NCBI GenBank assembly: GCA_020148025.1
Contig: JAHCRH010000001.1
Coordinates: forward strand, 12,652-76,651
Source: Patescibacteria group bacterium
GTDB taxonomy: Bacteria > Patescibacteriota > Minisyncoccia > Minisyncoccales > JAHCRE01
Length of the DNA: 64,000 bases
Reading direction: 5' to 3'
In this document: piece after piece, positions 199 to 30,560 of the stretch
How positions within the stretch are numbered: position 1 is the first letter of the stretch
Layout of the letters: each line of letters starts with the position of its first letter
Notes under the pieces: generated by a model
What the model was told of the DNA's origin: nothing
The model's input: only the letters and a program-made list of their open reading frames with translations
The model's database searches: none
Program-made: the position numbers and the translations under genes

Positions 199-323
199 GT
201 CGCGGCACGCGACGGTCGCTTTTGCGACCGCGCTAATACCGCTCCTTAAAACCCATCGGTTTTAATCTTTCCGCTACGGGAAAACGCCCACTGTTCACAC
301 ACAGCTCAGTTTTCCCGACCCAG
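199..323 (-). repeat. GC-rich palindromic element, family A copy (reverse orientation), upstream of the first ORF
   Basis: 'gtcgcggcacgcgacggtcgc...ctacgggaaaacgcccactg...gttttcccgaccc'; near-identical to the 44634-44733 copy. Confidence 0.65.
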
Positions 324-373
324 GGGCCCGCTTTAGCGGGAGGGTGGTGGGTGGGTTGTAGTCTGATTTTTCT

Positions 374-2029
374 ATGAAAAATAAATTGGCAATTTTCCTT
401 ATTTTTTTGACCGCTGCCTTGGGAGCCGCTGGTTTTTGGTATTATCAAAGAAACATCTATTCAAAAGATATTTTGAAATTGGAGATTTTCGGCCCAGAAA
501 CAGCTGAATTGATGGAAGAGATCGAATATATCGTCAAATATAAAAACAATGGCAATGTTAGGTTAGAGGAGGCCAGGCTTATTTTTGAATATCCAGAACA
601 TTCTATAGTGCTAGAAAATGAATTAAGAAAAGAAAAACCGCTCGACGATATTTATCCGGGAGAAGAAAAAACACTTAATTTTAAAGCTAGATTATTCGGG
701 AAAAAAGATGAATCCAAAATAGCTAAAGCTTGGCTAAGTTATCGGCCCAAAAATCTAAATGCTCGTTACGAATCAGAAACTTCCTTGACCACTATAATAA
801 AGAAGGTCCCGATAACCTTTGAACTTGATCTCCCCTCCAAAATTGAGTCAGGAAAGGAGATTCGATTTAGATTGAATTATTTTTCCAATGTCAATTATCC
901 TCTTTCCAACCTAAGGATAAGAATTGAATATCCTTCTGGCTTCGAGTTTTTAGAATCTAAACCCAAGACTTTGGAAGAAACTGAATGGGAGATTGGTCTT
1001 TTAAATCCAGCTGTAGGAGGGAGAATTGAGGTTTTAGGTAAAATCCAGGGAGAGGTTGGAGAATCAAAAATTTTCTGGGCTGAGCTTGGCCAGTGGCAGG
1101 AAGGAGAACTTGTTTTATTGAAAACAGTTAGTTGGGGAGTGGAGATTATTAAACCACTTTTGTATATTTTTCAAGAAATTAATGGAAATCCAAAGTATAT
1201 TGCTACTCCCGGCGACCTTTTGGATTATCGAATTTTCTTTAAGAATATTGGAGAGAGAGTTTTAGAAAATTTATTTTTAATGGTCAAATTAGAAAGTGAG
1301 ACTTTAGATTTCGACACCCTTAAAGTTGAACCCGATCGATTTGAAAGAATAGAAAATAAGATTATTTGGAACTACACAATGCTTTCTGATCTCAGGAGAC
1401 TGCCCCCAATGGCTGAAGGTAAAGTTGAGTTTTGGATAAAAGTAAAAGATGATTTTTCTCCCGATTTCAAAAATCCGGAAATCAAAACCGTAATTTCTTT
1501 AGATGGATTTAAAGAAGAATTCAACACCAAAATCAATTCAAAATTAGAAATTCTTCAAAAAGGATATTTTGAAGATGGAGTCTTTGGTAATTCTGGCCCC
1601 ATTCCTCCGAGAGTAGGAGAAACGACTACCTATAGTATAATCTGGCAAGCTAAAAATCATTATAACGATGTCAAAAATGTAAAGGTTAAAGCAACCTTGC
1701 CACTAGAAGTTAAATTGACTGGTAAAATTTTTCCTGAAGAGCAATCTTCAAAATTTGCTTTTGATTCTGAATCTCGGGAAATTGTCTGGGAAATCGGAGA
1801 TTTAGAGTCAGCTACAGGAGTTTCTGATGGTGGACCAAATGTTGCTTTTCAAGTATCCCTCACACCCACCGCCAGTCAGAGAGGTCAAATAGCAACTTTA
1901 ATTAATACAGCTAAGATTTCAGGCGAGGACCAATGGACGGAAGCAACCCTAGAAACAACAGCCGAAGCCATTGGCACCACTTTGCCAGACGATGAGACCA
2001 TAAGCGAGGAACAAGGGATTATTCGGTAA
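374..2029 (+). CDS. hypothetical surface protein, N-terminal TM anchor followed by beta-rich repeat domains
   Basis: 551 aa ORF; N-terminal hydrophobic helix 'LAIFLIFLTAALGAAGFWYY'; repeated Ig/DUF11-like segments; function unknown. Confidence 0.55.
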   Translation: MKNKLAIFLIFLTAALGAAGFWYYQRNIYSKDILKLEIFGPETAELMEEIEYIVKYKNNGNVRLEEARLIFEYPEHSIVLENELRKEKPLDDIYPGEEKTLNFKARLFGKKDESKIAKAWLSYRPKNLNARYESETSLTTIIKKVPITFELDLPSKIESGKEIRFRLNYFSNVNYPLSNLRIRIEYPSGFEFLESKPKTLEETEWEIGLLNPAVGGRIEVLGKIQGEVGESKIFWAELGQWQEGELVLLKTVSWGVEIIKPLLYIFQEINGNPKYIATPGDLLDYRIFFKNIGERVLENLFLMVKLESETLDFDTLKVEPDRFERIENKIIWNYTMLSDLRRLPPMAEGKVEFWIKVKDDFSPDFKNPEIKTVISLDGFKEEFNTKINSKLEILQKGYFEDGVFGNSGPIPPRVGETTTYSIIWQAKNHYNDVKNVKVKATLPLEVKLTGKIFPEEQSSKFAFDSESREIVWEIGDLESATGVSDGGPNVAFQVSLTPTASQRGQIATLINTAKISGEDQWTEATLETTAEAIGTTLPDDETISEEQGIIR

Positions 2030-2038
2030 TTCTAATTT

Positions 2039-3367
2039 ATGAATAATCTAATGAATAAAATTATCTCTCTTTGTAAAAGGCGGGGATTTGTTTTTCAATC
2101 GTCGGAAATTTATGGCGGCTTTAGTTCTTGTTATGATTTCGGACCCCTTGGAGTAGAAATGAAAAATAATATTAAGCGAGTTTGGTGGGATGAGATGATA
2201 AAGAATCATGAGAATATTGTTGGATTGGATGCGGCAATTTTAATGAAACCCGAGATTTGGAAGGCTTCAGGGCATTTAACCGCCGGCTTTGCTGATACTT
2301 TAGTCGAATGCAAGTCCTGCCACAAGAGATATAGAGCTGATGAGGTAGATAGTAAAGTTTGCCCAGAATGTGGGGGGGAATTAACCAAACCAAGAAAGTT
2401 TAATTTAATGATGAAAACTTTTGTTGGACCAGTTGAAGAAGACGCCGCAACAACTTATTTAAGAGCCGAGACCTGTCAAGGGATCTATGTTAATTTTGAA
2501 AATGTTTTAAATTCAATGAGGCTGAAAATCCCTTTTGGAATCGCCCAAATTGGAAAATCCTTTAGAAATGAAATCACCCCAAAAGATTTTATTTTTCGAA
2601 CCCGAGAATTCGAACAAATGGAGATGCAATGGTTCTGCCATCCAAAAACGGCAGCAAAATATTTTAATTATTGGATAAAAGAAAGATTGAATTGGTATTT
2701 AAATTTGGGGATTAAAAAAGAAAATTTGAGAATAAAAGAACATAAAAAAGAGGAACTTCCCCATTACGCCAAAGCCGGAACTGATATTGAATACCATTTC
2801 CCCTTCGGCTGGAGAGAGATCGAAGGAATTCATAACCGGGGTGATTGGGATTTATCTAATCACGCCAAAAACAGCGGAAAAGATTTAAGTTATTATAATG
2901 AGGAAACTAAAGAAAAATACATTCCTTATATTATTGAGACTTCAGGTGGAGTTGATAGAAGTTTTTTTGTCTTCTTAATTGATGCCTATCAAGAGATAAA
3001 AGGGGGTAGAACTGAAACAACAAAAGCGGCGAAGGAAATAGAAATTTTACTTAAGCTTGACAAGAAATTAACTCCAATTAAAGTTGCGGTACTACCATTG
3101 GTTAGAAATAAACCAAACATAGTAAAAAAAGCTAAGGAGGTTTACGAAATGTTAAAACCTCATTTTATGTGCCAATACGATGAATTAGGTTCAATTGGTA
3201 GAAGATATCGAAGACAAGACGAGATTGCAACTATATATGCCGTAACCATTGATTTTGAAACTTTGGAAAAAGAAGATGTCACCATTAGAGATCGCGACAC
3301 AATGAAACAGGAAAGAGTAAAAATTAAAGATTTGATTAGTGTTTTAAAAGAAAAATTAGGGTTCTAA
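2039..3367 (+). CDS. glyQS: glycine--tRNA ligase (dimeric GlyQS type)
   Basis: 442 aa; N-terminus 'RRGFVFQSSEIYGG...YDFGPLG', class II aaRS core and anticodon-binding C-terminal domain. Confidence 0.9.
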   Translation: MNNLMNKIISLCKRRGFVFQSSEIYGGFSSCYDFGPLGVEMKNNIKRVWWDEMIKNHENIVGLDAAILMKPEIWKASGHLTAGFADTLVECKSCHKRYRADEVDSKVCPECGGELTKPRKFNLMMKTFVGPVEEDAATTYLRAETCQGIYVNFENVLNSMRLKIPFGIAQIGKSFRNEITPKDFIFRTREFEQMEMQWFCHPKTAAKYFNYWIKERLNWYLNLGIKKENLRIKEHKKEELPHYAKAGTDIEYHFPFGWREIEGIHNRGDWDLSNHAKNSGKDLSYYNEETKEKYIPYIIETSGGVDRSFFVFLIDAYQEIKGGRTETTKAAKEIEILLKLDKKLTPIKVAVLPLVRNKPNIVKKAKEVYEMLKPHFMCQYDELGSIGRRYRRQDEIATIYAVTIDFETLEKEDVTIRDRDTMKQERVKIKDLISVLKEKLGF

Positions 3368-3383
3368 TTTGAATTTAAGTTAA

Positions 3384-3413
3384 AGCGAAAGTTCGAGTCC
3401 TACCGCCGGAGCA
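3384..3413 (+). other. tRNA 3'-end fragment (T-loop 'GTTCGAGTCC' plus acceptor-like 'CGCCGGAG'), no upstream tRNA body
   Basis: sequence 'gttcgagtcctaccgccggagca' immediately after the glyQS stop; upstream is AT-rich coding sequence with no cloverleaf. Confidence 0.3.
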
Positions 3414-3442
3414 ATTATATAATGTCATTATAGAATTCAAAT

Positions 3443-3478
3443 AATCGCCTTTTGGGCGGTTTTTTGGTAGAATAGAAT
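3443..3478 (+). promoter_or_regulatory. R2 module: short hairpin plus T-run followed by TGnTAGAAT extended -10 (terminator-promoter unit)
   Basis: 'aatcgccttttgggcggttttttggtagaat'; same module recurs at 4861-4893 and 5833-5865. Confidence 0.4.
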
Positions 3479-3516
3479 GAGAGTCGGCATAATTTGATAA
3501 CAAAAATATAATTACT

Positions 3517-3678
3517 ATGAAGAACCAAAAAATAGTAGGAATTTTATTGGCGTTAACAGGAGCCTTCTTAATGTGGAATGGTAGTATTTTGGGAGAAAAT
3601 ACTACAGGTATTGCAACTATCATAGGTATTGTCGGGTTGATCTTAATAGCTACATCACGGAAAGCCAAAAAATTCTAA
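3517..3678 (+). CDS. small membrane protein (53 aa, one TM helix)
   Basis: ATG about 3517 to TAA about 3676-3678; 'MKNQKIVGILLALTGAFLMWNG...IGIVGLILIATSRKAKKF'; preferred over the antisense track ORF 3375..3668. Confidence 0.4.
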   Translation: MKNQKIVGILLALTGAFLMWNGSILGENTTGIATIIGIVGLILIATSRKAKKF

Positions 3679-3713
3679 ATCAACAAATTATTAACAGGCA
3701 GCTGCTACTAAAC

Positions 3714-3741
3714 AGGTTCTAACATCGTCCCATCTGGGGAG
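3714..3741 (+). repeat. R1 motif copy 1 (AGGTTCTAACATCGTCC...GGGGAGC)
   Basis: 'aggttctaacatcgtcccatctggggagc', directly followed by TATAAT and a small ORF. Confidence 0.6.
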
Positions 3742-3763
3742 CAAATAGTGTATAATTATATCT

Positions 3764-3883
3764 ATGGCAAAAAGAAGAAAAGGAATAGGAAAGAGAAAGA
3801 AGTCTCATTCAAAAAAGACCAAAAAACGGCTTGCGATAAAGCGTGAAATGTTGGCAAAAAGGGACAGCAAACGGCGCAAGTAG
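3764..3883 (+). CDS. very basic 39-aa peptide (Lys/Arg-rich)
   Basis: 'MAKRRKGIGKRKKSHSKKTKKRLAIKREMLAKRDSKRRK'; TATAAT 8 nt upstream; below the ORF-track size cutoff. Confidence 0.3.
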   Translation: MAKRRKGIGKRKKSHSKKTKKRLAIKREMLAKRDSKRRK

Positions 3884-3920
3884 ATCTATTTTTCTATGTA
3901 ACCAGAATGTGCCTGAAAAT

Positions 3921-3980
3921 AGGTTCTAACATCGTCCACTACTTACAAAAAAGGTTCGAAGACTGTTAAGGGTGGGGAGC
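3921..3980 (+). repeat. R1 motif copy 2 (carries a 36-nt internal insertion)
   Basis: 'aggttctaacatcgtcca...ggttcgaagactgttaagggtggggagc'. Confidence 0.55.
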
Positions 3981-3996
3981 TTTTTTATTTCCGCCC

Positions 3997-4017
3997 GCCC
4001 CGAGAGTTTTTCTCGGG
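3997..4017 (+). repeat. R3 hairpin 'CCCCGAGAGTTTTTCTCGGGG'; part of the left 40-bp direct repeat flanking the ncRNA unit
   Basis: left direct repeat 3978-4020, matching 4329-4372 at about 38 of 42 positions. Confidence 0.6.
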
Positions 4018-4042
4018 GTTTTGAATTTATACCCATAAACCC

Positions 4043-4070
4043 TTGACAAGTTCTGTGGGTTTGCTATAAT
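4043..4070 (+). promoter_or_regulatory. near-consensus sigma70-type promoter TTGACA-16-TATAAT
   Basis: 'ttgacaagttctgtgggtttgctataat'. Confidence 0.6.
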
Positions 4071-4077
4071 AGAGGCG

Positions 4078-4337
4078 TATAGGGTAAAAGCTCTGTACCG
4101 AAAGGACCATTCGGACACAGGACGGATAGTCTTGGGTAATTTAAAAGGCTTACTTATTGAAAGCGAGTACTTCTGGAAAAGATTCCAATGAATTCTTCCA
4201 CGGGGGAGCCTGTGCTCCTATGTGGAAAATGGGTTCAGAGAAGACGTACAGAAGTACAGATGAACAAGTAGGTAGGATAAGCCTCTTTTTTACTCACATG
4301 GGGTGCGTCACTAAGATTCACCCCTTACTCTTTTTTA
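4078..4337 (+). ncRNA. candidate structured small RNA of about 260 nt, family not identified
   Basis: consensus promoter upstream; internal hairpins (ccgaa/ttcgg, ggagc/gctcc); ends in intrinsic terminator 'ggggtgcgtcactaagattcacccc' plus T-run; no convincing protein frame. Confidence 0.4.
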
Positions 4338-4347
4338 TTTCCGTCGC

Positions 4348-4368
4348 TCCGAGAGTTTTTCTCTCGGG
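4348..4368 (+). repeat. R3 hairpin copy 2 (right direct repeat of the ncRNA unit)
   Basis: 'ccgagagtttttctctcgg' within 4329-4372. Confidence 0.55.
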
Positions 4369-4400
4369 TTTCTTTGTATTACCCGATTAAGGAAACTAAA

Positions 4401-4434
4401 ACAAAAACCCCGCAAGAATTTTGCGGGGTTTGTT
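4401..4434. terminator. bidirectional intrinsic terminator
   Basis: 'aaaaccccgcaagaattttgcggggtttgtt': GC stem with an A-run and T-run on opposite sides. Confidence 0.6.
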
Positions 4435-4443
4435 CGTTCTGGA

Positions 4444-4623
4444 TTAGCGTTCGAATCTTCGAGTTCTTCGTTTAGCATGACAGTCTCTACAGTAAAGTGG
4501 TCTATCTCCCGATGGTTCAAATGGAAGTTCGGTTATTTCTTTTCCGCAATCAGAACATTTCCAATTTCCCTTGAACATCTTTCGAGGGAAATCTCTATTG
4601 GATTCAAATTTTTTGAAGGCCAT
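4444..4623 (-). CDS. small zinc-ribbon protein (59 aa, CxxC...CxxC)
   Basis: reverse-strand ORF 'MAFKKFESNRDFPRKMFKGNWKCSDCGKEITELPFEPSGDRPLYCRDCHAKRRTRRFER'; 60 codons counted; ends at the bidirectional terminator. Confidence 0.5.
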   Translation of the reverse strand: MAFKKFESNRDFPRKMFKGNWKCSDCGKEITELPFEPSGDRPLYCRDCHAKRRTRRFER

Positions 4624-4821
4624 AAATAAATGTTATTTAGTGATTAAAGGTAAAAAGCGACCTTTATGACTCTTAAGTCGCTCTACTTATTTAGGCCCCG
4701 TTAATTTTTTGAAATTACTAAAGACTTACTTTAAGATACCTCGACTTATAAATCTAAAATCATTATACTCCTTATTTTTAATAAGTCAAGTTGATGTATT
4801 GACCAAGTGGTTTTACTAACT

Positions 4822-4850
4822 AGTTTCTAACATCGTCCACCCAGGGGAGC
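4822..4850 (+). repeat. R1 motif copy 3
   Basis: 'agtttctaacatcgtccacccaggggagc', followed by the R2 module 4861-4893. Confidence 0.6.
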
Positions 4851-4935
4851 TCCGTTCAGAAAATCGCCAAGAAGGCGATTTTTTAGTAGAATGTTTTAAA
4901 GGTCATATAAAATAATTTATAAGCAACCAAAAAAT

Positions 4936-5160
4936 ATGAAAGATGAAACAAAAACAGCAATACTTACAGCTGTTCTCATGATAGGATTGATAATAATTTT
5001 TAAGAACGTAATATACAAACCACTGAATGTGGTGCCCTTATATTTAATTCCAGTGTTTCTTTATATTGGATACATAACAAGGAGAGTTGGTGCTAATCTT
5101 TGGATTGGTATGACTCTATTCATCACGTTGGCAATGGCTGTATTGCATGCTTTCTTTTAG
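4936..5160 (+). CDS. small membrane protein (74 aa, 2-3 TM helices)
   Basis: hydrophobic segments 'ILTAVLMIGLIIIF', 'LYLIPVFLYIGYI', 'LWIGMTLFITLAMAVL'. Confidence 0.5.
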   Translation: MKDETKTAILTAVLMIGLIIIFKNVIYKPLNVVPLYLIPVFLYIGYITRRVGANLWIGMTLFITLAMAVLHAFF

Positions 5161-5186
5161 AGTTTTTTTATTGTTTAGGTAAAAAA

Positions 5187-5687
5187 ATGCAGAGGAATAA
5201 CCTTTATGAAGAAAAGATATCCTCGAAGTGGTGGATGACGGGTATATTGACCGCTTTTACAGCTGGACTTCTTTTCGTATTGGTCTATCAAATTTTGGTA
5301 GGATCAATTGGTACTCGTCCTGCTCCAAACTTGTTTTTCCTACTTATGTTTCTATTGTTTTTAGGAGTGGTGATTAATTTTAGTAGGCTAAGCATTAGAA
5401 TAACTCACCTGTCTGTCAGGGTCAGTTATGGAATTTTTAAGCACACAATCCCCTGGGAGAATATTAAGAATTGTTATATAGACGAAGTTTCAACAATTAG
5501 ATATGGGGGTTGGGGCATACGCATAGGCAGAGTTAAGGGAAAATGTAGATTAGTGTATAATGTTATAGGAGCCCCTCGAGTTGTGCTTTCATTGAAGAAA
5601 GGTAAATTTAAAGAGTTTGTTTTTTCAACTGAAAAACCAAAAGAAGTAATGAATATAATCAGGCAACGGAGAGGTAGCGACTCTTGA
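5187..5687 (+). CDS. membrane protein with bacterial PH (bPH/DUF304-like) domain
   Basis: two N-terminal TM helices then 'YGIFKHTIPWENIKNCYIDE...RYGGWGIRIG'; start taken at internal ATG about 5187 of the track ORF 5100..5687. Confidence 0.5.
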   Translation: MQRNNLYEEKISSKWWMTGILTAFTAGLLFVLVYQILVGSIGTRPAPNLFFLLMFLLFLGVVINFSRLSIRITHLSVRVSYGIFKHTIPWENIKNCYIDEVSTIRYGGWGIRIGRVKGKCRLVYNVIGAPRVVLSLKKGKFKEFVFSTEKPKEVMNIIRQRRGSDS

Positions 5688-5798
5688 ATTAGCAGATCTC
5701 GGAATTTATAGAGATGATGACTGGTAAGTTGGGGTATAAGAACTAATGTTGATACTTAACTGAACCGACTCAATACTCGGTAAATTCTTCCAAAACCA

Positions 5799-5826
5799 AG
5801 TTCTAATATTGTACCATCCCTGGAGC
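5799..5826 (+). repeat. R1 motif copy 4 (diverged)
   Basis: 'aagttctaatattgtaccatccctggagc', followed by R2 at 5833-5865. Confidence 0.5.
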
Positions 5827-5875
5827 ACACAAAAATCGCCAAGAAGGCGGTTTTTTGGTAAAATAAAAATGTTTT

Positions 5876-6622
5876 ATGAAAGAAAGATATAAAAAACATG
5901 ATAAAAATAAAATGATTTGTTTCGATTTAGAAGGCGTATTAGTTAGTGGATTGGAGAAGGAGGGAGTTGTGATTCGTACAAATTCTTATACCTTGCTAAG
6001 TAAATTTTCTGGAAAAGAAAGTGAAAATCAAAGGTTATTAGAACAATTTTTAAAAGATAAAATCTCTCAAGAAAAATATGTATTAAATTCCGTAGCTTTA
6101 TGGAAAGGACTGCCAGTGGAAAAATTGAATGAAATTATTCCGTATCTTAGATTTACAACAAATGCAAAATTGGTTTGCGATTATTTAAGTCAACACGGAT
6201 ACAATCTCAGCACTATTTCCAACGGATTTTCTTTTATTACAAATTCTGTTGCAACCACATTAGGTTTAAAGTATGCTGTTTCCAATAAGCTGGAGGTCAA
6301 AAATAAAAAACTAACAGGTAGAATTGAATATGGACTAATTTTTAAGAACGAAAAGAAAGAAATAGAAAAAATTAACCCTCTTATAAAGAGCGGTTCTAAA
6401 GTTTACGCATTAAAATTACTTCTCAAAAAAGAGGAGCTAAACCCATCAAATGTTATTGTCTTCGGTGATTATCCAAATGATATAGAAATAATGAGATTTG
6501 TTAAAGATAGCCATGGAGTGGGCATCGCTTTTAATGCCGTCGAGCAAGTAAAGAAAATTGCAAGCCTATCTATAGACTCAAATGATTTAAAGATAATTTT
6601 AGAATATATAAAGCAATGGTGA
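5876..6622 (+). CDS. HAD-superfamily hydrolase (phosphoserine phosphatase-like)
   Basis: motif I 'ICFDLEGVL' (DxDx[TV]) and motif IV 'GDYPNDIEIM'. Confidence 0.7.
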   Translation: MKERYKKHDKNKMICFDLEGVLVSGLEKEGVVIRTNSYTLLSKFSGKESENQRLLEQFLKDKISQEKYVLNSVALWKGLPVEKLNEIIPYLRFTTNAKLVCDYLSQHGYNLSTISNGFSFITNSVATTLGLKYAVSNKLEVKNKKLTGRIEYGLIFKNEKKEIEKINPLIKSGSKVYALKLLLKKEELNPSNVIVFGDYPNDIEIMRFVKDSHGVGIAFNAVEQVKKIASLSIDSNDLKIILEYIKQW

Positions 6623-6714
6623 ATAGCGGGGTGGGGTAGATTAAATAGTTGCTAATACTTGTTTTATTTGCTGGAACATAATCTTAGGGCTATCAACAAA
6701 ATCCTCCCATCTCA

Positions 6715-6766
6715 AGGTTCTAAAATCGTCCGATAGACCGAGCCACTGCCCGAGAGTTTTTCTCGG
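6715..6766 (+). repeat. R1 motif copy 5 fused to R3 hairpin copy 3
   Basis: 'aggttctaaaatcgtccgatagaccgagccactgcccgagagtttttctcgg'. Confidence 0.5.
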
Positions 6767-6780
6767 ATAATCTATATATA

Positions 6781-6868
6781 AAAAAGGAGCTAAGCTCCTT
6801 TTTGTATAGCTTCTTTTTTGTTCCTGCTTATCCCCGCCGGGTCTTCGTCCGGCGGGCTTTGTTTTTTT
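6781..6868 (+). terminator. two consecutive intrinsic terminators
   Basis: 'ggagctaagctcc' plus T-run, then 'ccgccgggtcttcgtccggcgg' plus a T-run. Confidence 0.55.
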
Positions 6869-6897
6869 AAAAACTTTAAACTATAATTAAATAAACC

Positions 6898-8163
6898 ATG
6901 TTCAAAAAAACCATTCTAAAAAATGGTTTGCGGATTATTACTTTTCCTATGAAGAATACTCGAGCTTTGACTCTTTTGATTTTGGTGGCAACTGGCTCAA
7001 AATACGAAAAAAAAGAAAACAATGGAATTTCTCATTTATTAGAGCACATGGCCTTTAAAGGAACAAAAAAGAGACCCCAGACAATAGATATTGCCAAAGA
7101 ATTGGATAGGGTCGGTGGTCTTTATAATGCTTTCACTGGCAAAGAATCGATGGGATTTTGGGTAAAAGTTGGAGCAACTCATTTTGATTTAGCCACTGAT
7201 GTTTTGTCAGACATGGTTTTTAATTCTTTATTTAAAAAAGAAGAAATTGCAAAAGAAAAAAAAGTGATCTTCGAGGAAATCAATATGATGAAAGATAGTC
7301 CTTCAAGATATGTTTTAGAGCTGTGGGGAAAATTATTATATGGTGATCAGCCAGCTGGCTGGCCAATTGCAGGCGAAAAGAAAACAATTGAAAAAATTTC
7401 AAGAAAAGAAATTTTAGATTATTTTAAAAATCAATTTGGAGCAAAAAATATTGTGATTTCTTTAACTGGAAATTTTAAAGAAAAGAAAGCCATCTCAAAG
7501 ATTAAAAGTTTTTTCGGGCGCTTAAAAAAAATAAAACCTATTTTTAAAAAGCCAACAATTGAAATTCAAAAAAAACCTGAAGTTTTAATTAATTTTAAAG
7601 AAACTGATCAGGCTCATTTGTGTCTTGGAGTAAGAACTTTCGACATATTTCAACCAGAAAGATATCCTTTGGCTGTGATGTCTGTGATTTTGGGAGGGAT
7701 TATGAGCTCTCGGCTTTTTATAAAAGTTCGGGAAAAAAGAAGTTTGGCTTATTATATTAGAACATTCCCTCAACATTATACGGATACAGGTTTCCTGGTC
7801 ACTCATACAGGGATAGATAATAAAAGAGTTGAAGAGGCAATAAAGATTATTCTAAATGAATATAGTGATCTTAAAACAAAAAAAGTTTCCAAAAGAGAAC
7901 TTAAAAAAGCAAAAGAAAACATTAAAGGCCGTCTTTATTTAGGATTAGAAACTTCTGATGCCTGGGCAACTTTTTTGGGGAGTCAAGAAATTTTAAAAAA
8001 AGAAATTTCAACTCCTGTGAAAGAGTGTAAAAGAATTGATAAAGTTAGCCAAGCCGATGTTTTAAAGGTAGCAAAAAATCTTTTCCGGCCAGAAAAATTA
8101 AATTTAGCCTTAATTGGTCCATTTAAAGATAAAGAGAAATTTAAAAAACTATTAAGAATATGA
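6898..8163 (+). CDS. M16-family zinc peptidase (insulinase/pitrilysin-like)
   Basis: inverted zinc motif 'HLLEHMAFKGT' (HxxEH); about 420 aa two-domain fold. Confidence 0.85.
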   Translation: MFKKTILKNGLRIITFPMKNTRALTLLILVATGSKYEKKENNGISHLLEHMAFKGTKKRPQTIDIAKELDRVGGLYNAFTGKESMGFWVKVGATHFDLATDVLSDMVFNSLFKKEEIAKEKKVIFEEINMMKDSPSRYVLELWGKLLYGDQPAGWPIAGEKKTIEKISRKEILDYFKNQFGAKNIVISLTGNFKEKKAISKIKSFFGRLKKIKPIFKKPTIEIQKKPEVLINFKETDQAHLCLGVRTFDIFQPERYPLAVMSVILGGIMSSRLFIKVREKRSLAYYIRTFPQHYTDTGFLVTHTGIDNKRVEEAIKIILNEYSDLKTKKVSKRELKKAKENIKGRLYLGLETSDAWATFLGSQEILKKEISTPVKECKRIDKVSQADVLKVAKNLFRPEKLNLALIGPFKDKEKFKKLLRI

Positions 8164-9185
8164 ATCAGAACAGGCTCTTAGATATTTCTTGGGAGACAAT
8201 TTTTAAAATTCTTTTTGCTGTTATTTGCCTTTATTTTCTTTATTTAATTAGAAATGTTCTTATCTGGTTTATCTTTGCTGTAATAATTTCAGTCTTATTT
8301 GAACCCTTGATTGATTTTTTGACAAAACGGAAGATCCCCAGATTAATCTCGGTTGTTCTCATCTATTTTATTATTTTTGGATTAATTGCTCTTTCGATTT
8401 ATTTTACTGTTTCCATATTTACTTCTGAGATTCGTCAATTTACAAAAGTTTTGCCCCAATATTTTGAAAAAATTTCTCCACCCTTAAAAGCATTAGGTTT
8501 CAGGGCTTTTGAAAATATAGAAGAATTTATAGACTTATTAAGTAAAAATCTGGAAAGAATGGCTGACACCATTTTTAGTGCTATAGCTGCTATTTTTGGA
8601 GGAATTTTGGCAACTCTTTCAATTTTTTCGATTTCCCTCTTTCTTTCTTTAGAGGGAAAGCCAATCCAAAAAGCTCTGGGCCTTATTTTCCCCCAAAAAT
8701 ATGAAGCCTCTTTGCTAGATCTTTGGTCAAGATGTAAAATTAGAGTTTCCGGTTGGTTTCTATCAAGAATTTCTGGTTGTCTTTTTGTTGGAATTTCAAG
8801 CTTCGTTGCTTTTTCTCTTTTTAATACAAAATATCCTTTTTCATTGGGATTTTTAGCGGGTATTCTTAATTTCCTGCCAATAGTTGGGCCGATTATTACT
8901 GGAATTATCATTTTTATAATAGTTTCTTTAGATAATCTTTGGCAGGCAATTTTTGTATTAATCGTCTTTATCTTAATTCAGCAAATTGAGAATAATATCA
9001 TTTTGCCGGCCCTAACAAAAAAATTTGTTGGTTTGCCACCGGTTATAGTTTTATTAGCCTTAACAGTAGGAGGAATCTTATGGGGAATCTGGGGGGCAAT
9101 CTTGGCTATTCCATTTTTTGGAATTTTATTTGAATTTTTTAAAGAGTTTTTACAAAAGAAGAAAGAGAAAGCAGAAATTCTTTAA
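8160..9185 (+). CDS. AI-2E family transporter (PerM/UPF0118)
   Basis: multi-TM; conserved C-terminal 'LIQQIENNIILPALTKKFVGLPPV...GGILWGIWGAILAIP'. Confidence 0.85.
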   Translation: MNQNRLLDISWETIFKILFAVICLYFLYLIRNVLIWFIFAVIISVLFEPLIDFLTKRKIPRLISVVLIYFIIFGLIALSIYFTVSIFTSEIRQFTKVLPQYFEKISPPLKALGFRAFENIEEFIDLLSKNLERMADTIFSAIAAIFGGILATLSIFSISLFLSLEGKPIQKALGLIFPQKYEASLLDLWSRCKIRVSGWFLSRISGCLFVGISSFVAFSLFNTKYPFSLGFLAGILNFLPIVGPIITGIIIFIIVSLDNLWQAIFVLIVFILIQQIENNIILPALTKKFVGLPPVIVLLALTVGGILWGIWGAILAIPFFGILFEFFKEFLQKKKEKAEIL

Positions 9186-9332
9186 ATGGCTATTTTATAC
9201 ATCGTTGCAACTCCAATTGGGAATTTAGAGGATATTTCTGTAAGCGCCCTCCGAATTTTAAAGGAGGTTGATTTAATTTTATGTGAAGATACAGGGGTGA
9301 CAAAGAAATTGTTGGATCGCAATTTGAGATAA
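9186..9332 (+). pseudogene. rsmI: N-terminal 48-codon remnant of 16S rRNA 2'-O-methyltransferase RsmI
   Basis: '[48 protein letters not shown]' matches the RsmI N-terminus; the rest of the roughly 230-280 aa enzyme is absent. Confidence 0.55.
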
Positions 9333-9425
9333 TTTATTAAAAAAATTGATGAGGTGATAAAAAAAATCGAAAAAGAGAAAATAAAAGGAGAATTTGTAGT
9401 GATTATAAATAAATAAAATACATCA

Positions 9426-10958
9426 ATGAAAAAATTTTATGTAACCACAGCTATTGATTATGTGAATGCTCCTCCTCATTGCGGGCATGCTTTGGAGAAA
9501 ATTCAGACAGATGCGATAGCTCGTTATCATCGGCTTTTGGATGAGGAAGTTTTATTTTTGACTGGAACCGATGAAAATAGTCTCAAAAATGTTCAGGCAG
9601 CAAAGAAAGAAGGAATTCCTACAAAGAAATTGGTAGATAGAAACTCTAAGAAATTTTATGAATTGAAGAAAGTTCTGAATTTGTCTTTCGATGATTTCAT
9701 AAGAACCACTGAGGAACGCCATATTAAGGGGGCTCAAAAATTATGGTTAGCTTGCAAAAAGGATATTTATAAAAAAACTTATAGAGGGCTCTATTGTATA
9801 GGGTGTGAAGAATTTTACAAAGAGAGTGAGCTTGAAGATGGTCTTTGTCCTGAACACAAGACAAAACTCGAATTAGTAGAGGAGGAGAATTACTTTTTCC
9901 GACTTTCGAAACATCGAGATGAATTAGAAAAGATTATTAAAAACGATGAAATTAAAGTCACCCCCGAGTCAAGAAAAAACGAAATCCTTAGTTTTATCAA
10001 GTCGGGCTTGGAAGATATTTGTATTTCTCGCTCAGCAGAGCGGGCTCACGGATGGGGGATTGATGTTCCTGGAGATCCAACTCAAAAAATTTGGGTTTGG
10101 CTGGAGGCACTTTCAAATTATATCAATGGAGTGGAGTATGCTACTGATGAAAAAAAGTTTAAGAAATGGTGGCCGGCTGATTTACATGTAATCGGGAAAG
10201 GGATCTCCAGATTCCATTGTATATATTGGCCTGCATTTTTACTTTCGGCAAAATTACCCTTGCCAAAGAAAATTTTCGTCCACGGCTATTTAACTGTTGG
10301 TGGGCAAAAAATGTCAAAGAGTTTGGGAAATATTGTTGATCCGTTTGAATTAGTTGAAAAATATGGGACAGATAGCGTTCGATATTTTCTCTTGCGGGAA
10401 ATCCCTTCAGCTGAAGATGGTGACTTTACCTATGAGAAATTTGAAAAAAGATATAATTCAGATTTGGCAAAAGGTCTGGGAAATTTAGTAGCCAGAACCT
10501 TAACAATGGTTGAGAAATATTGTGATGGCAAAGTGCCTGAGATTGATAAAGATCCAGATAGTCATCCATTAAGAATTGATACAAAAATCCACAACTGGAA
10601 AAAGTCTTGGGCAGATGTAGATAAACACGTGCCGAATTTCCAATTCAATGAAGCACTTTCTTCGATCTGGAAATTCATCACTGAGGCCGATAGATATATC
10701 GAAGAAAATAGACCTTGGGATTTGGCAAAAGAGGGAAAAATCAAGGAATTGAATTGGATATTATATGGTTTGCTAAACGCCATTCATCAAATTGCCTGGC
10801 AAATTTATATTTTTATACCAGAAACTTCTGTAAAAATTGCCAAAGCTCTAAAATTAGAAAAATTATTGGTGAAAGACCCGAAGGAGAAAGATAGCTGGAC
10901 TAATATTAGACCAGGAACCGAGGTCAAAGAAATCAAACCATTGTTTCCTAAGGTATAA
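9426..10958 (+). CDS. metG: methionine--tRNA ligase
   Basis: HIGH-type 'NAPPHCGHALE', zinc knuckles 'CIGCEEF...CPEH', 'KMSKSLGN'. Confidence 0.9.
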   Translation: MKKFYVTTAIDYVNAPPHCGHALEKIQTDAIARYHRLLDEEVLFLTGTDENSLKNVQAAKKEGIPTKKLVDRNSKKFYELKKVLNLSFDDFIRTTEERHIKGAQKLWLACKKDIYKKTYRGLYCIGCEEFYKESELEDGLCPEHKTKLELVEEENYFFRLSKHRDELEKIIKNDEIKVTPESRKNEILSFIKSGLEDICISRSAERAHGWGIDVPGDPTQKIWVWLEALSNYINGVEYATDEKKFKKWWPADLHVIGKGISRFHCIYWPAFLLSAKLPLPKKIFVHGYLTVGGQKMSKSLGNIVDPFELVEKYGTDSVRYFLLREIPSAEDGDFTYEKFEKRYNSDLAKGLGNLVARTLTMVEKYCDGKVPEIDKDPDSHPLRIDTKIHNWKKSWADVDKHVPNFQFNEALSSIWKFITEADRYIEENRPWDLAKEGKIKELNWILYGLLNAIHQIAWQIYIFIPETSVKIAKALKLEKLLVKDPKEKDSWTNIRPGTEVKEIKPLFPKV

Positions 10959-10961
10959 ATT

Positions 10962-11828
10962 ATGCTTATCGATACCCATGCTCACTTGAATTTTTCGGCT
11001 TTTAAAGATGATGCCGACGAAGTTATTCGTCGGTCTTTAGAAAACGATATCTGGATGATAAATGTGGGATCAAATTACGAAACCTCAAAAAGAGCAATAG
11101 AAATTGCCGATAGATATGGAAAGGGAGTTTTTGCTGCCATTGGCCTTCATCCAATAAATTTGCACACGGGATTAGTGAAGATAAAAGTTGACGATAAAGA
11201 AGGTGTTCATTTTGAAAAAGAATTTGATTTTGAAAATTACAAAGAGTTAGCCCGTTCGGCAGGCCCAGGGCAAGCCAAATCAAAAATTGTAGCCATTGGC
11301 GAAATTGGATTGGATTATTATTGGCGGCCCAAAACTACTAAAAAGAAAGAATTATTTAAACAAAAACAAAAAGAATTGCTTCTAGAAGAACTGAGATTAG
11401 CCCGAGAGTTGGAGCTACCAGTAATTTTTCACTGTCGAATGGCACACGATGACTTAATCGAAACCCTAACTAATTTGGACTGCGATTTCTACGATCGTAG
11501 AAATCGCAGTCAGATCTCGGGAGTGATTCACTGTTTTACCGGAAATTGGGAGCAGGCTCAAAAATTTCTGGAAATGGGGTTTCATCTTGGTTTTAATGGA
11601 ATAATTTTTAAATTAGATCTTGATGAAATAGTCAAAAAAACGCCCCTTGAGAAAATCTTAATTGAAACCGATTGTCCCTATCTTCCGCCTCCGCAATTTG
11701 AAAATCAAAGAAACGAACCGCTTTATGTTAAATATATTGCCAAAGAAATCGCCAAAATAAGAAATATAAGCTTTGAAAAAGTTGCTGAAATTACCACAAA
11801 AAACGCTAAAGAATTATTTGAAATTTGA
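10962..11828 (+). CDS. tatD: TatD-family metal-dependent DNase/hydrolase
   Basis: 'MLIDTHAHLNF' and TIM-barrel hydrolase pattern. Confidence 0.9.
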   Translation: MLIDTHAHLNFSAFKDDADEVIRRSLENDIWMINVGSNYETSKRAIEIADRYGKGVFAAIGLHPINLHTGLVKIKVDDKEGVHFEKEFDFENYKELARSAGPGQAKSKIVAIGEIGLDYYWRPKTTKKKELFKQKQKELLLEELRLARELELPVIFHCRMAHDDLIETLTNLDCDFYDRRNRSQISGVIHCFTGNWEQAQKFLEMGFHLGFNGIIFKLDLDEIVKKTPLEKILIETDCPYLPPPQFENQRNEPLYVKYIAKEIAKIRNISFEKVAEITTKNAKELFEI

Positions 11829-11890
11829 TTTTTTGGATTTCTTGAGTTAATCTAAGGTAGAATAGAAAAGTTCTTTAAAGAGGGAAAAAA

Positions 11891-12415
11891 ATGGGGAAAA
11901 AAATAAGGATCACAATTATGGGCTCCCATGGTACAGGAAAGACTACTCTAGCTAAAGCTCTAGCTAAAAGGCTGAATTTTACTTATATCCAGGATGTAGT
12001 TAGAGAAGAAGCGGTAAAGAAAGGATTCATAATCAATGAAAATACGCCTCCCGAAGTTCAACTATGGCTTTTAATGCGACAGTGGGAACTGGAAACAACT
12101 ACTCCCGGCGGCTGGGTTGCTGATAAATCTTTATTCGATTACCTTGTCTATGGAAATTTAGTATTAAAAGACGAAGCTGTAAAAAGAGTAATCAGGAAAA
12201 TTGTTCAACGAAATGCTAAGTATGACTTCGTCTTTTATCTTCCTATTGAATTTCCAATGGAAGAAGACGGGATTAGAAGCATTGATCCAAAGTTTCGAGG
12301 AGAGATTGACCACCTTTTCAGGAAATGTCTAGATGAATTTGGTGTCAAATATATCGTCCTTTCGGGATCCGTTGAAGAGCGAATAGAGCAAGCTTTAGCC
12401 CATATAAGAAAATAG
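11891..12415 (+). CDS. P-loop NTPase (AAA_28/NadR-like small kinase family)
   Basis: Walker A 'GSHGTGKTT'; 174 aa. Confidence 0.55.
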   Translation: MGKKIRITIMGSHGTGKTTLAKALAKRLNFTYIQDVVREEAVKKGFIINENTPPEVQLWLLMRQWELETTTPGGWVADKSLFDYLVYGNLVLKDEAVKRVIRKIVQRNAKYDFVFYLPIEFPMEEDGIRSIDPKFRGEIDHLFRKCLDEFGVKYIVLSGSVEERIEQALAHIRK

Positions 12416-12464
12416 AAGCTCTTTAAATATCTAAGTTAAAAAAGCCAGCTGAGCTGGCATTTTT

Positions 12465-13574
12465 TTATTTAAAGCACTTCCAATATTTTTTGAGAATCTC
12501 CTTTAGTTTTTGAACTATTTCCTTTGTTTCCCCTAATTTCGAATTTTTTGGTGGCCCCCCACCAAATTTGGTGGGGGGGTTTATTTTAATTGGTAAATCT
12601 ATTAATCCCGTAATTAAAGCTGTCCAGGCTAAAGGTAAAATTTCTTGATTATAACCTGAAGCAATTAAATCAATTTCTTTCTCTTGACAAACTTTATCTG
12701 CTAATTTTCTTACATTTTCTCCAATCATTTTTAATCCTTCCAAAGTTAAACCAAGATTGGTTAGACCATCGGCAAAATAAGGATCAGAGCCACCATACCT
12801 GATTATTATTTCTGGTTCAAACTCTTCAGCTATTGGGAAAATTATTTTTTCAAAAATATGTTGATAAGCATCATCACCAGCACCGGGAGATAAAGGAATA
12901 TTTAGAGTAAAGCCTTTTCCCCTCCCGTCGCCGATTTCATCCATGAAACCTGTTCCAGGATAAATTGTTCTTGGATCCTGATGAATATCTATAAATAAAA
13001 CCTGATTCTCGGTATAAAATGCTTCTGTCGTTCCATTTCCGGCATGGGCATCAGTATCTAAAATTAAAATTTTCTTGAGACCTTTTTTGAGTAAGTTTTG
13101 GGCACAAATTGCAACATCATTATAAACACAAAATCCCTCTCCTTTTTCTCTTTTGGCATGATGAAGGCCCCCGCCAATTGCTATAGCTTTTTTGAACCTA
13201 CCTTCGAAAACCAATTCCCCGGCCAACAAGGAAGCACCAACAGCTATTCTTGTAGCTTTTTCAATTCCTCTTGGCAAATAACCAGTGGAGGGGTCTAAAT
13301 TATCGACGGTGGCATATTGAAAAATGTTTGGCAAAATAATTCCCTCAGACGCTTTCTTCATCGCCTCAATATATTCTTGGCTATGAAATAACTTCAAATC
13401 TTCTTCAGTTGCAGGTTCTGGTTTAATTTCCTCAAAATAATCTTTGAAGTCTGGCAACTTTTCCTTTATAAAGTTAAGAAAAATTTCAAATCTCTCACTG
13501 GTAAAAGGATGATATTTTCCAAAACTATATTTTTTTATTTCTGGATTATAAATCAGAGCAGTTCTTTGTTTCAT
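12465..13574 (-). CDS. histone deacetylase-family protein (AcuC / acetylpolyamine amidohydrolase-like)
   Basis: 'ILDTDAHAGNGTTEAF', 'GGGLHHAKR'; C-terminal region carries a GC palindrome insertion (12541-12585). Confidence 0.85.
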   Translation of the reverse strand: MKQRTALIYNPEIKKYSFGKYHPFTSERFEIFLNFIKEKLPDFKDYFEEIKPEPATEEDLKLFHSQEYIEAMKKASEGIILPNIFQYATVDNLDPSTGYLPRGIEKATRIAVGASLLAGELVFEGRFKKAIAIGGGLHHAKREKGEGFCVYNDVAICAQNLLKKGLKKILILDTDAHAGNGTTEAFYTENQVLFIDIHQDPRTIYPGTGFMDEIGDGRGKGFTLNIPLSPGAGDDAYQHIFEKIIFPIAEEFEPEIIIRYGGSDPYFADGLTNLGLTLEGLKMIGENVRKLADKVCQEKEIDLIASGYNQEILPLAWTALITGLIDLPIKINPPTKFGGGPPKNSKLGETKEIVQKLKEILKKYWKCFK

Positions 13575-13640
13575 TTTTACATTATATTTTAAATAAATTC
13601 TTTACTCAATCAGTTTCAAAAGCAGAGTTTTTCTGATAAA

Positions 13641-16157: not shown

Positions 16158-16159
16158 AT

Positions 16160-16594
16160 ATGAACGAAAAATATCCAACTGTTCATGTAGATCCAGTAAT
16201 TATTACCAAAGATTATAGAGTTGTTTTGGCTCTAAGAGCTAAAGGTATAGAAGGAGGTGGTAAATGGCATTTGCCTGGAGGACAAGTTTTGTATGGCGAC
16301 ATTATTTTAGATGCACTGAAAAGACCTACCCTAAGAAAAACTGGATTAAAAATCGATTTTTATTATGATTCTGAAAAAGAGTCTTTAGTGAATGCCTACA
16401 GCAACCCCAAAAGAGATAGAAGGGGACATTTTGTTGCACTAGTTTTTCTGTGCAAATTAGTTGGAGGGGATTTAAAACCTGGAGAAAATATACAAGATGT
16501 GAAATTTTTCTCTAAACAAGAATTGAAAAACCTAGACATAGGTTGGGATCATAGAGAAATGATTGAAGATGCCTTTAAAAAACTTAGTATATAA
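16160..16594 (+). CDS. NUDIX hydrolase
   Basis: 'GGKWHLPGGQVLYGDIILDALKRPTLRKTGL' Nudix-box-like region. Confidence 0.7.
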   Translation: MNEKYPTVHVDPVIITKDYRVVLALRAKGIEGGGKWHLPGGQVLYGDIILDALKRPTLRKTGLKIDFYYDSEKESLVNAYSNPKRDRRGHFVALVFLCKLVGGDLKPGENIQDVKFFSKQELKNLDIGWDHREMIEDAFKKLSI

Positions 16595-30267: not shown

Positions 30268-30296
30268 TTGACAAATTAAATTTTATTTTTTATAAT
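30268..30296 (+). promoter_or_regulatory. consensus promoter TTGACA-17-TATAAT
   Basis: 'ttgacaaattaaattttattttttataat'. Confidence 0.65.
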
Positions 30297-30302
30297 ATAA
30301 AT

Positions 30303-30560
30303 TAAGAAAGGTTTTGCCTTGCAGCCTATCTGTGAGTGGCTCCGCCTGTTGAAATTTCTTTGAAATTTTAACAGATGAAAAAAGTAAGGTTATCCCTCCT
30401 GAAAACCTTACAGAGCTCATTAGCTATGGTTGAGGAGCAATCTTCTTTTAATTATAGCGCTCGCCCCGTAGTAAATTTTTACTGTGGGGTGTGAAGCTCG
30501 TGGTGAAATACTTATGTATTTTTACTACGGGGCTCGCAGATAGACTGGAGGGCAGAATTA
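30303..30560 (+). ncRNA. structured RNA or long 5' leader of about 260 nt (6S-like or riboswitch/attenuator-like; unidentified)
   Basis: closing helix 5' 'cctatctgtgag' with 3' 'ctcgcagatag'; three mutually exclusive pairing segments 'gccccgtagtaaa', 'tactgtgggg', 'tttactacggggc'; no terminator before ORF 30709. Confidence 0.4.

Follow-up and report, generated by a model that had tools for sequence, protein, structure and literature searches.

In bacteria, a stand-alone small RNA (sRNA) gene consists of a sigma-70 promoter, a structured body and an intrinsic terminator. Integron cassettes can also carry sRNAs, an example being sRNA-Xcc1 of Xanthomonas. The attC site of an integron is an imperfect palindrome (R″-L″...L′-R′) which folds as a hairpin, and the IntI tyrosine recombinase and the attI site adjoin the array of cassettes. 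6S RNA is about 180–200 nt long, is conserved across its lineage, and is held together by a closing stem of its 5′ and 3′ ends, which flanks a large central bubble.

The locus described here lies in a stretch of 64 kb (“the window”, i.e., the whole of the DNA analysed), which is part of a Patescibacteria (Nealsonbacteria-like) chromosome. A preliminary description of this DNA had proposed a promoter-driven, structured small RNA bounded by direct repeats of about 40 bp; the observation is partly confirmed and the interpretation partly supported by the analysis presented here. Like stand-alone sRNA genes, the unit runs from a promoter to a terminator, has no credible open reading frame (ORF), begins with a stable 5′ hairpin and is situated in accessory, mosaic DNA. 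Unlike them, it is a unit for which neither a homologue nor a target was found in the searches described below, and it ends in four stacked terminator-like hairpins rather than one. We regard it as an orphan small-RNA candidate that is unproven.

The island between the GlyRS and M16 peptidase genes

The RNA unit is one of a series of small cassettes inserted between two conserved genes, the positions of which are as follows.

2039–3367: gene for GlyRS, a class II aminoacyl-tRNA synthetase (identified by Pfam)
3368–6897: lineage-specific island of 3.5 kb with about six small cassettes, between the GlyRS gene and the M16 peptidase gene
4444–4623, minus strand: 59-aa treble-clef zinc-finger protein, CxxC-x17-CxxC (Pfam PF23477, E = 3e-14)
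6898–8163: M16 peptidase gene (identified by Pfam)

The 80 relatives fetched via GlyRS are all Patescibacteria (labelled Nealsonbacteria or other Parcubacteria). Both the GlyRS gene and the M16 peptidase gene are present in 63 of them, and in 40 of these 63 the gap between the two genes is 111 nt or less. Some relatives have unrelated inserts of 0.2–3.9 kb at this place, and L001, whose GlyRS is 84% identical, has a different insert of 3.9 kb. Comparison of the island with the 80 GlyRS loci revealed no similarity except for 45 nt directly ahead of the M16 peptidase gene. Exact-protein look-ups of the neighbouring genes led to a further assembly of the population from which the window comes (ERZ23498930, 99.8% identity), the contigs of which stop at 3797 and resume at 4967, thereby bracketing the part of the island that holds the RNA unit; these contig breaks are compatible with strain-level variation at the island.

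Each unit of the island has its own promoter and terminator. In order, the units are those of a 53-aa membrane protein, a 39-aa basic protein, the RNA unit, the 59-aa zinc-finger protein, a pair of membrane proteins (74 aa and 166 aa), and then a HAD hydrolase. The zinc-finger gene is convergent to the RNA unit and constitutes a separate, neighbouring cassette.

Promoter, fold and 3′ end of the RNA unit

The elements of the RNA unit, from the promoter to the last terminator, are listed here in the order in which they would be read.

4043–4070, plus strand: sigma-70-type promoter, TTGACA-16-TATAAT with a TG extension (12/12 in a consensus scan; sequence match)
4077–4098, plus strand: 5′-terminal hairpin at the predicted transcription start (minimum free energy [MFE] structures)
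4103–4133, plus strand: second hairpin (MFE fold)
4146–4284, plus strand: irregular hairpin of about 140 nt, followed by U6 at 4286–4291, the first possible 3′ end (fold)
4167–4175 with 4249–4257, plus strand: perfect 9-bp stem inside the hairpin of about 140 nt (fold)
4196–4227, plus strand: apical hairpin GGGGGAGC/GCUCC inside the same hairpin (fold)
4300–4340, plus strand: hairpin GGGGTG...CACCCC (4300–4324), 6-nt spacer and U-run (4331–4336) (sequence and fold)
4348–4368, plus strand: second copy of hairpin B (see below), terminator-like (scan and sequence)
4405–4431: strong bidirectional terminator, common to the RNA unit and the convergent zinc-finger gene (terminator scan)

The near-consensus promoter noticed in the preliminary description agrees with the consensus at all 12 positions and has a TG extension in addition; thus, by sequence match, the unit has a promoter of its own, as an sRNA gene should. 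A pattern search of the 64-kb window observed two such perfect matches, against 0.03 expected from shuffled sequence. The predicted start at about 4077 is placed from the position of the –10 element. The string comprising the –10 element and the initial transcribed bases (TATAATAGAGGCGTA) is identical at L116 1091–1105, where it heads a protein-coding cassette; apart from junction pieces, this promoter/start string TATAATAGAGGCGTA is all of the RNA unit that was found again in the collections searched. Comparable promoters drive protein genes in the sister cassettes of L116, L148 and L179.

The plus strand of 4076–4345 folds with an MFE of –90.2 kcal/mol (z = –5.1), which was equalled by none of 200 shuffles. 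The minus strand folds too (z = –4.6), to a structure about 13 kcal/mol weaker than that of the plus strand, and G–U pairs account for 15 of the 82 pairs (18%) in the plus-strand structure. The bias in stability towards the plus strand, together with the G–U pairs, speaks for a structure that is read on the plus strand; given how well the minus strand folds, part of the folding signal is plain inverted repeat. The GC content of the RNA unit is 43%, compared with 35.5% for the window, which places it at the 94th percentile among windows of 261 nt. The raised GC content and the strand-biased folding are the sole intrinsic hints of selection at the level of the RNA. A second promoter-driven structured RNA candidate is present elsewhere in the window (30303–30560; z = –10.3, no Rfam match) and, going by the modelled folds, would be a far stronger structured-RNA candidate than the unit at 4077.

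As for the 3′ end, the stem at 4300–4324 had been described as a clean intrinsic terminator. This description does not hold: there is a gap of 6 nt between the stem and its U-run, the terminator scan makes no call for this stem, and a better stem with U6 ends upstream of it, at 4291. There are four candidate 3′ ends (about 4291, 4340, 4375 and 4431) and, as several terminator-like hairpins are stacked, the candidate RNA would be about 215, 264, 300 or 360 nt in length. Thus, the RNA of about 260 nt (4078–4337) that had been proposed retains its hairpin-rich fold, but not its single defined length.

Coding potential, known RNA families and the search for relatives

The only long frame in the unit (ORF77, 4157–4390, with a TTG start) crosses two terminator hairpins. 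A search of 5.8 billion proteins found no homologue for it, and its single match among 1.84 billion cluster representatives is a spurious tandem-repeat protein; likewise, a tblastx comparison with related DNA (about 1.7 Mb) revealed no protein remnant in the RNA unit. The earlier judgement that the unit has no credible protein frame is therefore borne out, and the unit probably has no translated ORF.

With Rfam 15 at the gathering threshold, the sole match in the whole window is a tRNA-Leu outside the RNA unit. At E = 10 with lax filters, nothing relevant was found in 3300–5000 or in 4060–4345, where the best matches (E = 0.4–10) are to eukaryotic snoRNA, lncRNA and miRNA families; ARAGORN found the tRNA-Leu elsewhere only, and no tmRNA. 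The Rfam search thus gave no family for the unit, which had already appeared to lack the hallmarks of RNase P, tmRNA, SRP and 6S RNA: it matches the models of 6S, RNase P, SRP, tmRNA, riboswitches, ribozymes, raiA, OLE and HEARO in no instance.

The DNA that is specific to the RNA, i.e., excluding the repeats, comprises about 4023–4328. Searches with nhmmer and blastn of 255 loci, which amount to about 1.95 Mb and include 80 GlyRS-syntenic genomes, 120 D1-bearing metagenome loci (among the matches listed; for D1, see below), 28 loci from viruses and another 25, found no homologue of this region. A single-sequence covariance model (R1) run over about 1.95 Mb returned the self match only; blastn against phage and plasmid collections left the RNA body unmatched; and IMG/VR, scanned twice for exact words from two segments of the RNA, returned unrelated phage terminators, or nothing. 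The RNA is also absent from the contexts of the closest zinc-finger homologues, and no second copy of the body was found, so that the body is single-copy. Because no homologue was found in the collections searched, the structure is backed neither by covariation nor by any other comparison, and no sign of selection emerges. Conservation with compensatory changes, which would mark an sRNA gene, was not found in the 255 loci, the phages, the plasmids or the IMG/VR word scans. The preliminary description had itself counted a want of conservation against its proposal, and the claim of a functional RNA is weakened to that extent. When mRNA targets were sought by duplex energy in the 73 translation-start regions of the window, the results were no better than those for shuffled controls.

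Repeats and terminator modules at the cassette joints

The unit is flanked by members of a small set of junction elements: the repeat modules with hairpin B, terminator A, and the motif D1.

3444–3464 and 5835–5855: other copies of terminator A
3706–3742, plus strand: copy of D1
3917–3980, plus strand: composite junction, with a truncated D1 (3917–3939) and a full divergent D1 (3944–3980, ending GGGGAGC)
3981–4019, plus strand: left repeat, U-rich tail TTTTTTATTTCCG and hairpin B (CCCCGAGAG-TTTTT-CTCGGGG), terminator-like
4331–4368, plus strand: right repeat, tail TTTTTTATTTCCG and the second copy of hairpin B
4814–4850: copy of D1
4863–4883, plus strand: terminator A, a hairpin ATCGCC-N5-GGCGRTTTTT fused to an extended –10 element (TTTTTTrGTArAAT)
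5787–5827 and 6705–6748: divergent copies of D1
6750–6768, plus strand: third copy of hairpin B, at the island’s end

The imperfect direct repeats on either side of the unit are real, 3980–4021 and 4330–4371 being 88% identical over 43 nt. The repeated module consists of a U-rich tail and the hairpin CCGAGAGTTTTTCTCGG. Copies of hairpin B (CCGAGAGTTTTTCTC) occur at 4000, 4349 and 6750, and its core recurs in many unrelated metagenomic contigs, beside other cargo. In L230 and L116, the module of the left repeat likewise comes after the basic 39-aa gene, with other cargo downstream; in L239, L241, L235 and L242, the zinc-finger gene has a conserved 3′ flank made up of hairpin B and the following TTTGTAT..ATTAAGGAA..AAAACAAAAACCCCGC. 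This recurrence with other cargo and in the zinc-finger flank implies that the left repeat closes the preceding unit and that the right repeat belongs to the zinc-finger cassette. Judged by their sequence, the “40-bp repeats” are generic inter-cassette terminator modules of the whole island. They had been taken to bound the unit; that they are boundaries belonging to the element itself, such as target-site duplications or terminal repeats, is contradicted by the third copy at 6750, the copies in unrelated contigs and the zinc-finger flank. The idea of a discrete inserted module survives in part: the unit behaves as a module, in that other cargo is found between the same junction pieces in relatives, but the repeats are not its private boundaries.

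Within the window, hairpin B, terminator A and D1 are confined to the island and are found at cassette joints. In some respects they can be compared with the REP/BIME elements of enterobacteria, which are likewise sequence-conserved hairpins just 3′ of genes, serve as terminators as well and are combined as modules. In contrast to REP/BIME, the elements in the window are island-confined rather than dispersed and are fused to promoters, and no RAYT-type transposase was seen.

The cassettes that neighbour the RNA unit are mosaic. The basic 39-aa gene occurs in three contexts (the window, L128 and L230), and different genes follow it in each; in L230 its unit comes after a membrane-protein gene, a context which differs from that in L128/L229, where the arrays carry a ParE toxin–antitoxin pair. 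The membrane-protein cassettes of the island also recur elsewhere, in L136, L173, L180 and L204. The composite of D1 and hairpin B upstream of the RNA promoter has a counterpart of 91% identity at L116 312–419, where a protein gene follows it. The zinc-finger cassette (4390–4797) is 73% identical in L168, with no RNA beside it, and in L239, L241, L235 and L242 the hairpin B and 40-nt linker known from the window likewise precede the zinc-finger gene, the position of the RNA unit being taken by oxidoreductase or other genes.

The D1 motif and its arrays

The motif that accompanies the repeat modules, D1, is 36 nt in length (AAACAGGTTCTAACATCGTCC-N7-GGAGC). A whole-metagenome scan with the pattern TTCTAACATCGTCC-N7-GGAGC gave at least 146 copies in at least 120 contigs, and a motif profile gave at least 201 copies. 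Among the matches listed, AAACAGG is conserved upstream of the searched pattern and nothing is conserved downstream of GGAGC; a T-run follows within 80 nt downstream in 106 of 137 copies. All multi-copy contigs among these matches (44 of 44) have their copies on the same strand, with a median spacing of 880 nt and a co-oriented upstream ORF in 150 of 170 cases, the densest array having 10 copies in 5.9 kb of one contig.

This arrangement resembles that of integron arrays and CALINs, which also consist of short, mostly single-gene modules on one strand, in which every gene is followed by a conserved site; individual cassettes turn up in different contexts, and the cargo includes toxin–antitoxin and small-protein genes. 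As in integrons, co-oriented sites follow co-oriented ORFs at a cassette-sized spacing (among the matches listed). Unlike attC, D1 is asymmetric and does not form the R″/L″–L′/R′ hairpin, so that the palindrome is missing. Unlike the cassettes of integron arrays, each cassette here has its own promoter and terminator. Furthermore, no integrase was found adjoining the arrays (the island is flanked by the GlyRS and M16 peptidase genes), and clustering of the ORFs of at least 120 aa from the 120 loci among the matches listed revealed no recurrent recombinase family near D1.

Several other identities were considered for D1 and rejected. As an attC-like palindrome, it would need an inverted partner, which was found within 200 nt downstream in 1 of 137 copies (among the matches listed), i.e., at the control rate. 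A tRNA-like 3′ end was rejected for want of a T-arm fold, and a DNA uptake sequence because the motif is island-confined and on a single strand. Nor is D1 the C-terminus of a real long protein encoded on the opposite strand: the frames are short, and the 43 database matches to the opposite-strand frame are all orphans of 29–81 aa with no Pfam domain. The literature searched contained no match to the motif sequence. D1 could be a recombination site or, equally, an RNA element in 3′ untranslated regions.

A second class of contigs, which is less AT-rich (GC 0.40–0.46), has copies of D1 in which the reverse strand extends as a conserved, peptide-like frame (..LPGQDDVRTF..EIPIYDIP*). This frame exists as orphan ORFs of 29–81 aa only and, in one case, two copies of it bracket a three-gene block with an HNH-domain gene.

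What the RNA unit may be

To the reading that the unit is an accessory, autonomous, non-coding transcription unit, carried as cargo of a mosaic cassette island, we assign roughly an even chance. Constitutive transcription from the consensus promoter at 4043–4070 would start the RNA at about 4077; the RNA would comprise, in order, the 5′-terminal hairpin, the second hairpin and the irregular hairpin of about 140 nt, and would be stopped by one of the stacked hairpins, at about 4291, 4340 or 4375, with 4431 as a backstop. The 5′ hairpin and the 3′ terminator hairpins would stabilise it. The junction module (U-rich tail and hairpin B) would be a terminator that insulates adjacent cassettes from each other, and the RNA module would have come by recombination at the junction pieces. 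The promoter suggests that the unit is transcribed; we infer that the product acts as an RNA, most plausibly a stable accessory small RNA with a regulatory or protein-binding role.

Much the same DNA might be left if a cassette had decayed, losing its protein gene while keeping its strong promoter and terminators; any transcript would then be functionless, and its folding an incidental consequence of terminator stacking and inverted repeats. Decay would fit the identical promoter/start string and the hairpin B–promoter layout that head protein genes in sister cassettes, the good folding on both strands, and the lack of conservation in the collections searched. It fits less well with the z-score of –5.1, the plus-strand bias and the many G–U pairs, or with a GC content that is raised relative to the genome, and the tblastx comparison with related DNA (about 1.7 Mb) found no remnant of the protein that would have been lost. 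In addition, a perfect 12/12 promoter is unlikely to last long without selection. On balance, decay is an unlikely explanation, albeit one to be taken seriously. A protein product could also be sought in the unit as it stands, as similar cassette arrays carry toxin–antitoxin genes (the ParE pair of L128/L229) and the transcript might be a highly structured mRNA that encodes a small peptide, perhaps a toxic one in the manner of type I toxins. Two frames are candidates.

4188–4271: candidate 27-aa frame, beginning with ATG
4221–4390: candidate 56-aa frame, beginning with ATG, whose GGGGGAG ribosome-binding site would be hidden within the apical hairpin

Within the apical hairpin, the Shine–Dalgarno-like GGGGGAG pairs with CUCC, and the 56-aa frame ends in a hydrophobic C-terminus. 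However, this frame crosses two terminator hairpins and their U-tracts, and its apparent hydrophobicity is due to those U-tracts; its ribosome-binding site is 13 nt from the ATG, and the 27-aa frame is without a ribosome-binding site. No homologue was found in the 5.8 billion proteins or the 1.84 billion cluster representatives, no antisense partner is evident and no antisense promoter is present over the unit. Neither the hydrophobic ORF with a ribosome-binding site nor the antisense RNA of a type I toxin–antitoxin pair can be recognised here, and a toxin-like mRNA is very unlikely.

Two further explanations would place the unit in a known class of elements. Direct repeats of 88% identity on both sides, and the absence of the unit from relatives, are what might be expected if a small mobile element, either MITE-like or an integrated module, had the 40-bp repeats as its own terminal or target-site repeats. 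Yet the repeats are shared terminator modules, which occur also at 6750 and in unrelated contigs, and the right repeat belongs to a flank that is conserved beside the zinc-finger gene. Neither terminal inverted repeats nor a transposase accompany the body, which is single-copy. With neither repeats of its own nor further copies, the unit has a very slim chance of being a transposable element or MITE. The strong, constitutive-type promoter and the stable structure would also suit a divergent housekeeping RNA (6S, RNase P, SRP or tmRNA) which the Rfam models had missed in bacteria of the candidate phyla. Against this, Rfam is empty even at E = 10 with lax filters, ARAGORN found nothing, and the 5′ and 3′ ends do not pair with each other, unlike those of 6S, RNase P and SRP RNA; moreover, such an RNA is expected to be conserved, whereas the unit is in a strain-specific island that is missing at this locus from 80 related genomes. 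The resemblance to 6S RNA extends to the strong promoter and to a long irregular hairpin with internal loops; in contrast to 6S RNA, the 5′ end of the unit forms its own hairpin instead of a closing stem, the irregular hairpin measures only about 140 nt, Rfam gives no 6S match and the unit is not conserved in relatives, so that the defining features of 6S RNA are missing. A housekeeping RNA has next to no chance of being the explanation.

A wider proposal concerns the system to which the cassettes may belong. The RNA unit might be the non-coding cargo of an undescribed, integron-like cassette system of Patescibacteria, in which a putative recombinase would exchange cassettes at the asymmetric D1 and the hairpins, and the small RNA would be traded horizontally. 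We offer this proposal tentatively and consider it rather doubtful.

Implications for gene exchange and regulation in Patescibacteria

By itself, the unit adds to the number of unconfirmed orphan small-RNA candidates; its setting matters more. The setting is a hotspot between two conserved genes, filled with self-contained cassettes that are joined by conserved terminator modules and D1, and same-strand arrays of D1 are present in many metagenome contigs of the candidate phyla radiation. Should D1 be a recombination site, it would represent a new route for the exchange of genes (and RNA) in very small, host-dependent genomes; should it instead be an element of 3′ untranslated regions, it would represent a widespread post-transcriptional signal.

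The D1 Motif and Its Reverse-Strand Frame

Almost every gene of the island is followed by D1, a 36-nt junction motif, which also stands in same-strand arrays in at least 120 metagenome contigs. Among the matches listed, these arrays have up to 10 copies in 5.9 kb, with a median spacing of 880 nt. The copies are as follows:

3706–3742, 3917–3980, 4814–4850, 5787–5827 and 6705–6748 (also loci L109–L228): D1, AAACAGGTTCTAACATCGTCC-N7-GGAGC

There is no Rfam entry for D1, nor was its sequence found in the literature searched; its role may be that of a recombination site or else that of a 3′-UTR element. In an IMG/VR contig (L083, 14690–14819), a D1 copy lies precisely at the join of a 130-nt AT-rich end and GC-rich “viral” DNA; the join stems either from integration or from chimeric assembly. 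Two D1-bearing contigs also carry, several kb from D1, a LOOT RNA scoring well above the gathering threshold:

L228 5003–5132 (−): LOOT RNA (RF03000)
L152 569–688 (+): LOOT RNA (RF03000)

In less AT-rich contigs (GC 0.40–0.46; L149, L170, L182, L207, L213, L244–L255), the reverse strand of D1 extends into a peptide-like frame of conserved sequence, ..WLPGQDDVRTF-x(5-8)-EIPIYDIP..*, which occurs solely as orphan ORFs of 29–81 amino acids, in which no Pfam domains were found. In L170/L248, two copies of this frame flank a block of three genes, one of which has an HNH domain.

Modules and Neighboring Genes of the Island

At three places in the island, the terminator A hairpin (AATCGCC-AAGAA-GGCGG) is joined to TTTTTTGGTAGAAT, giving a module that unites a terminator with an extended −10 promoter and is conserved in sequence. 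It is nearly identical across dozens of metagenome contigs, and such sequence conservation is unusual for terminators. This module and the upstream parts of the zinc-finger gene are located as follows:

3444–3476, 4863–4894 and 5835–5866: terminator A joined to TTTTTTGGTAGAAT
4789–4762 (−): near-consensus promoter of the zinc-finger gene (11/12)
within 4624–4789 (−): 5′ leader of the zinc-finger gene, about 130 nt

The leader is about 73% conserved in the metagenome locus L168 and may be regulatory. The gene for a 39-aa basic protein (3764–3883), a protein that two other metagenome contigs encode in identical form, starts 7 nt past the extended −10 of TGTATAAT (3749–3766), and its mRNA is therefore probably leaderless.

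Island Edge and Possible Strain Variation

Immediately past the GlyRS stop codon, 3388–3420 resembles a tRNA 3′ end (GTTCGAGTCCTAC-CGCCGGA-GCA) across T-loop, T-stem and acceptor strand; the tRNA 5′ half is absent, and the sequence could be the remnant of an attachment site. Across 231–3797 and 4967–16163, the window is 99.8% identical to L233 and L231, contigs of the same population that were assembled independently (ENA ERZ23498930). The breaks in this assembly flank the segment with the basic-protein, RNA and zinc-finger units, which points to heterogeneity among strains in that region or to a break induced by repeats.

A Further Structured-RNA Candidate

Besides that of the RNA unit, the window has one other perfect promoter:

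30268–30296 (+): TTGACA-N17-TATAAT

The roughly 258 nt downstream of it (30303–30560, +) contain no ORF; for this stretch, an Rfam search gave zero hits at E ≤ 1, and no match turned up among the comparison loci searched. Its fold has an energy of −113.5 kcal/mol (z = −10.3), with the 5′ and 3′ ends predicted to pair and close a multi-helix junction with about five hairpins. As a candidate structured RNA, it far surpasses the RNA unit of the island.
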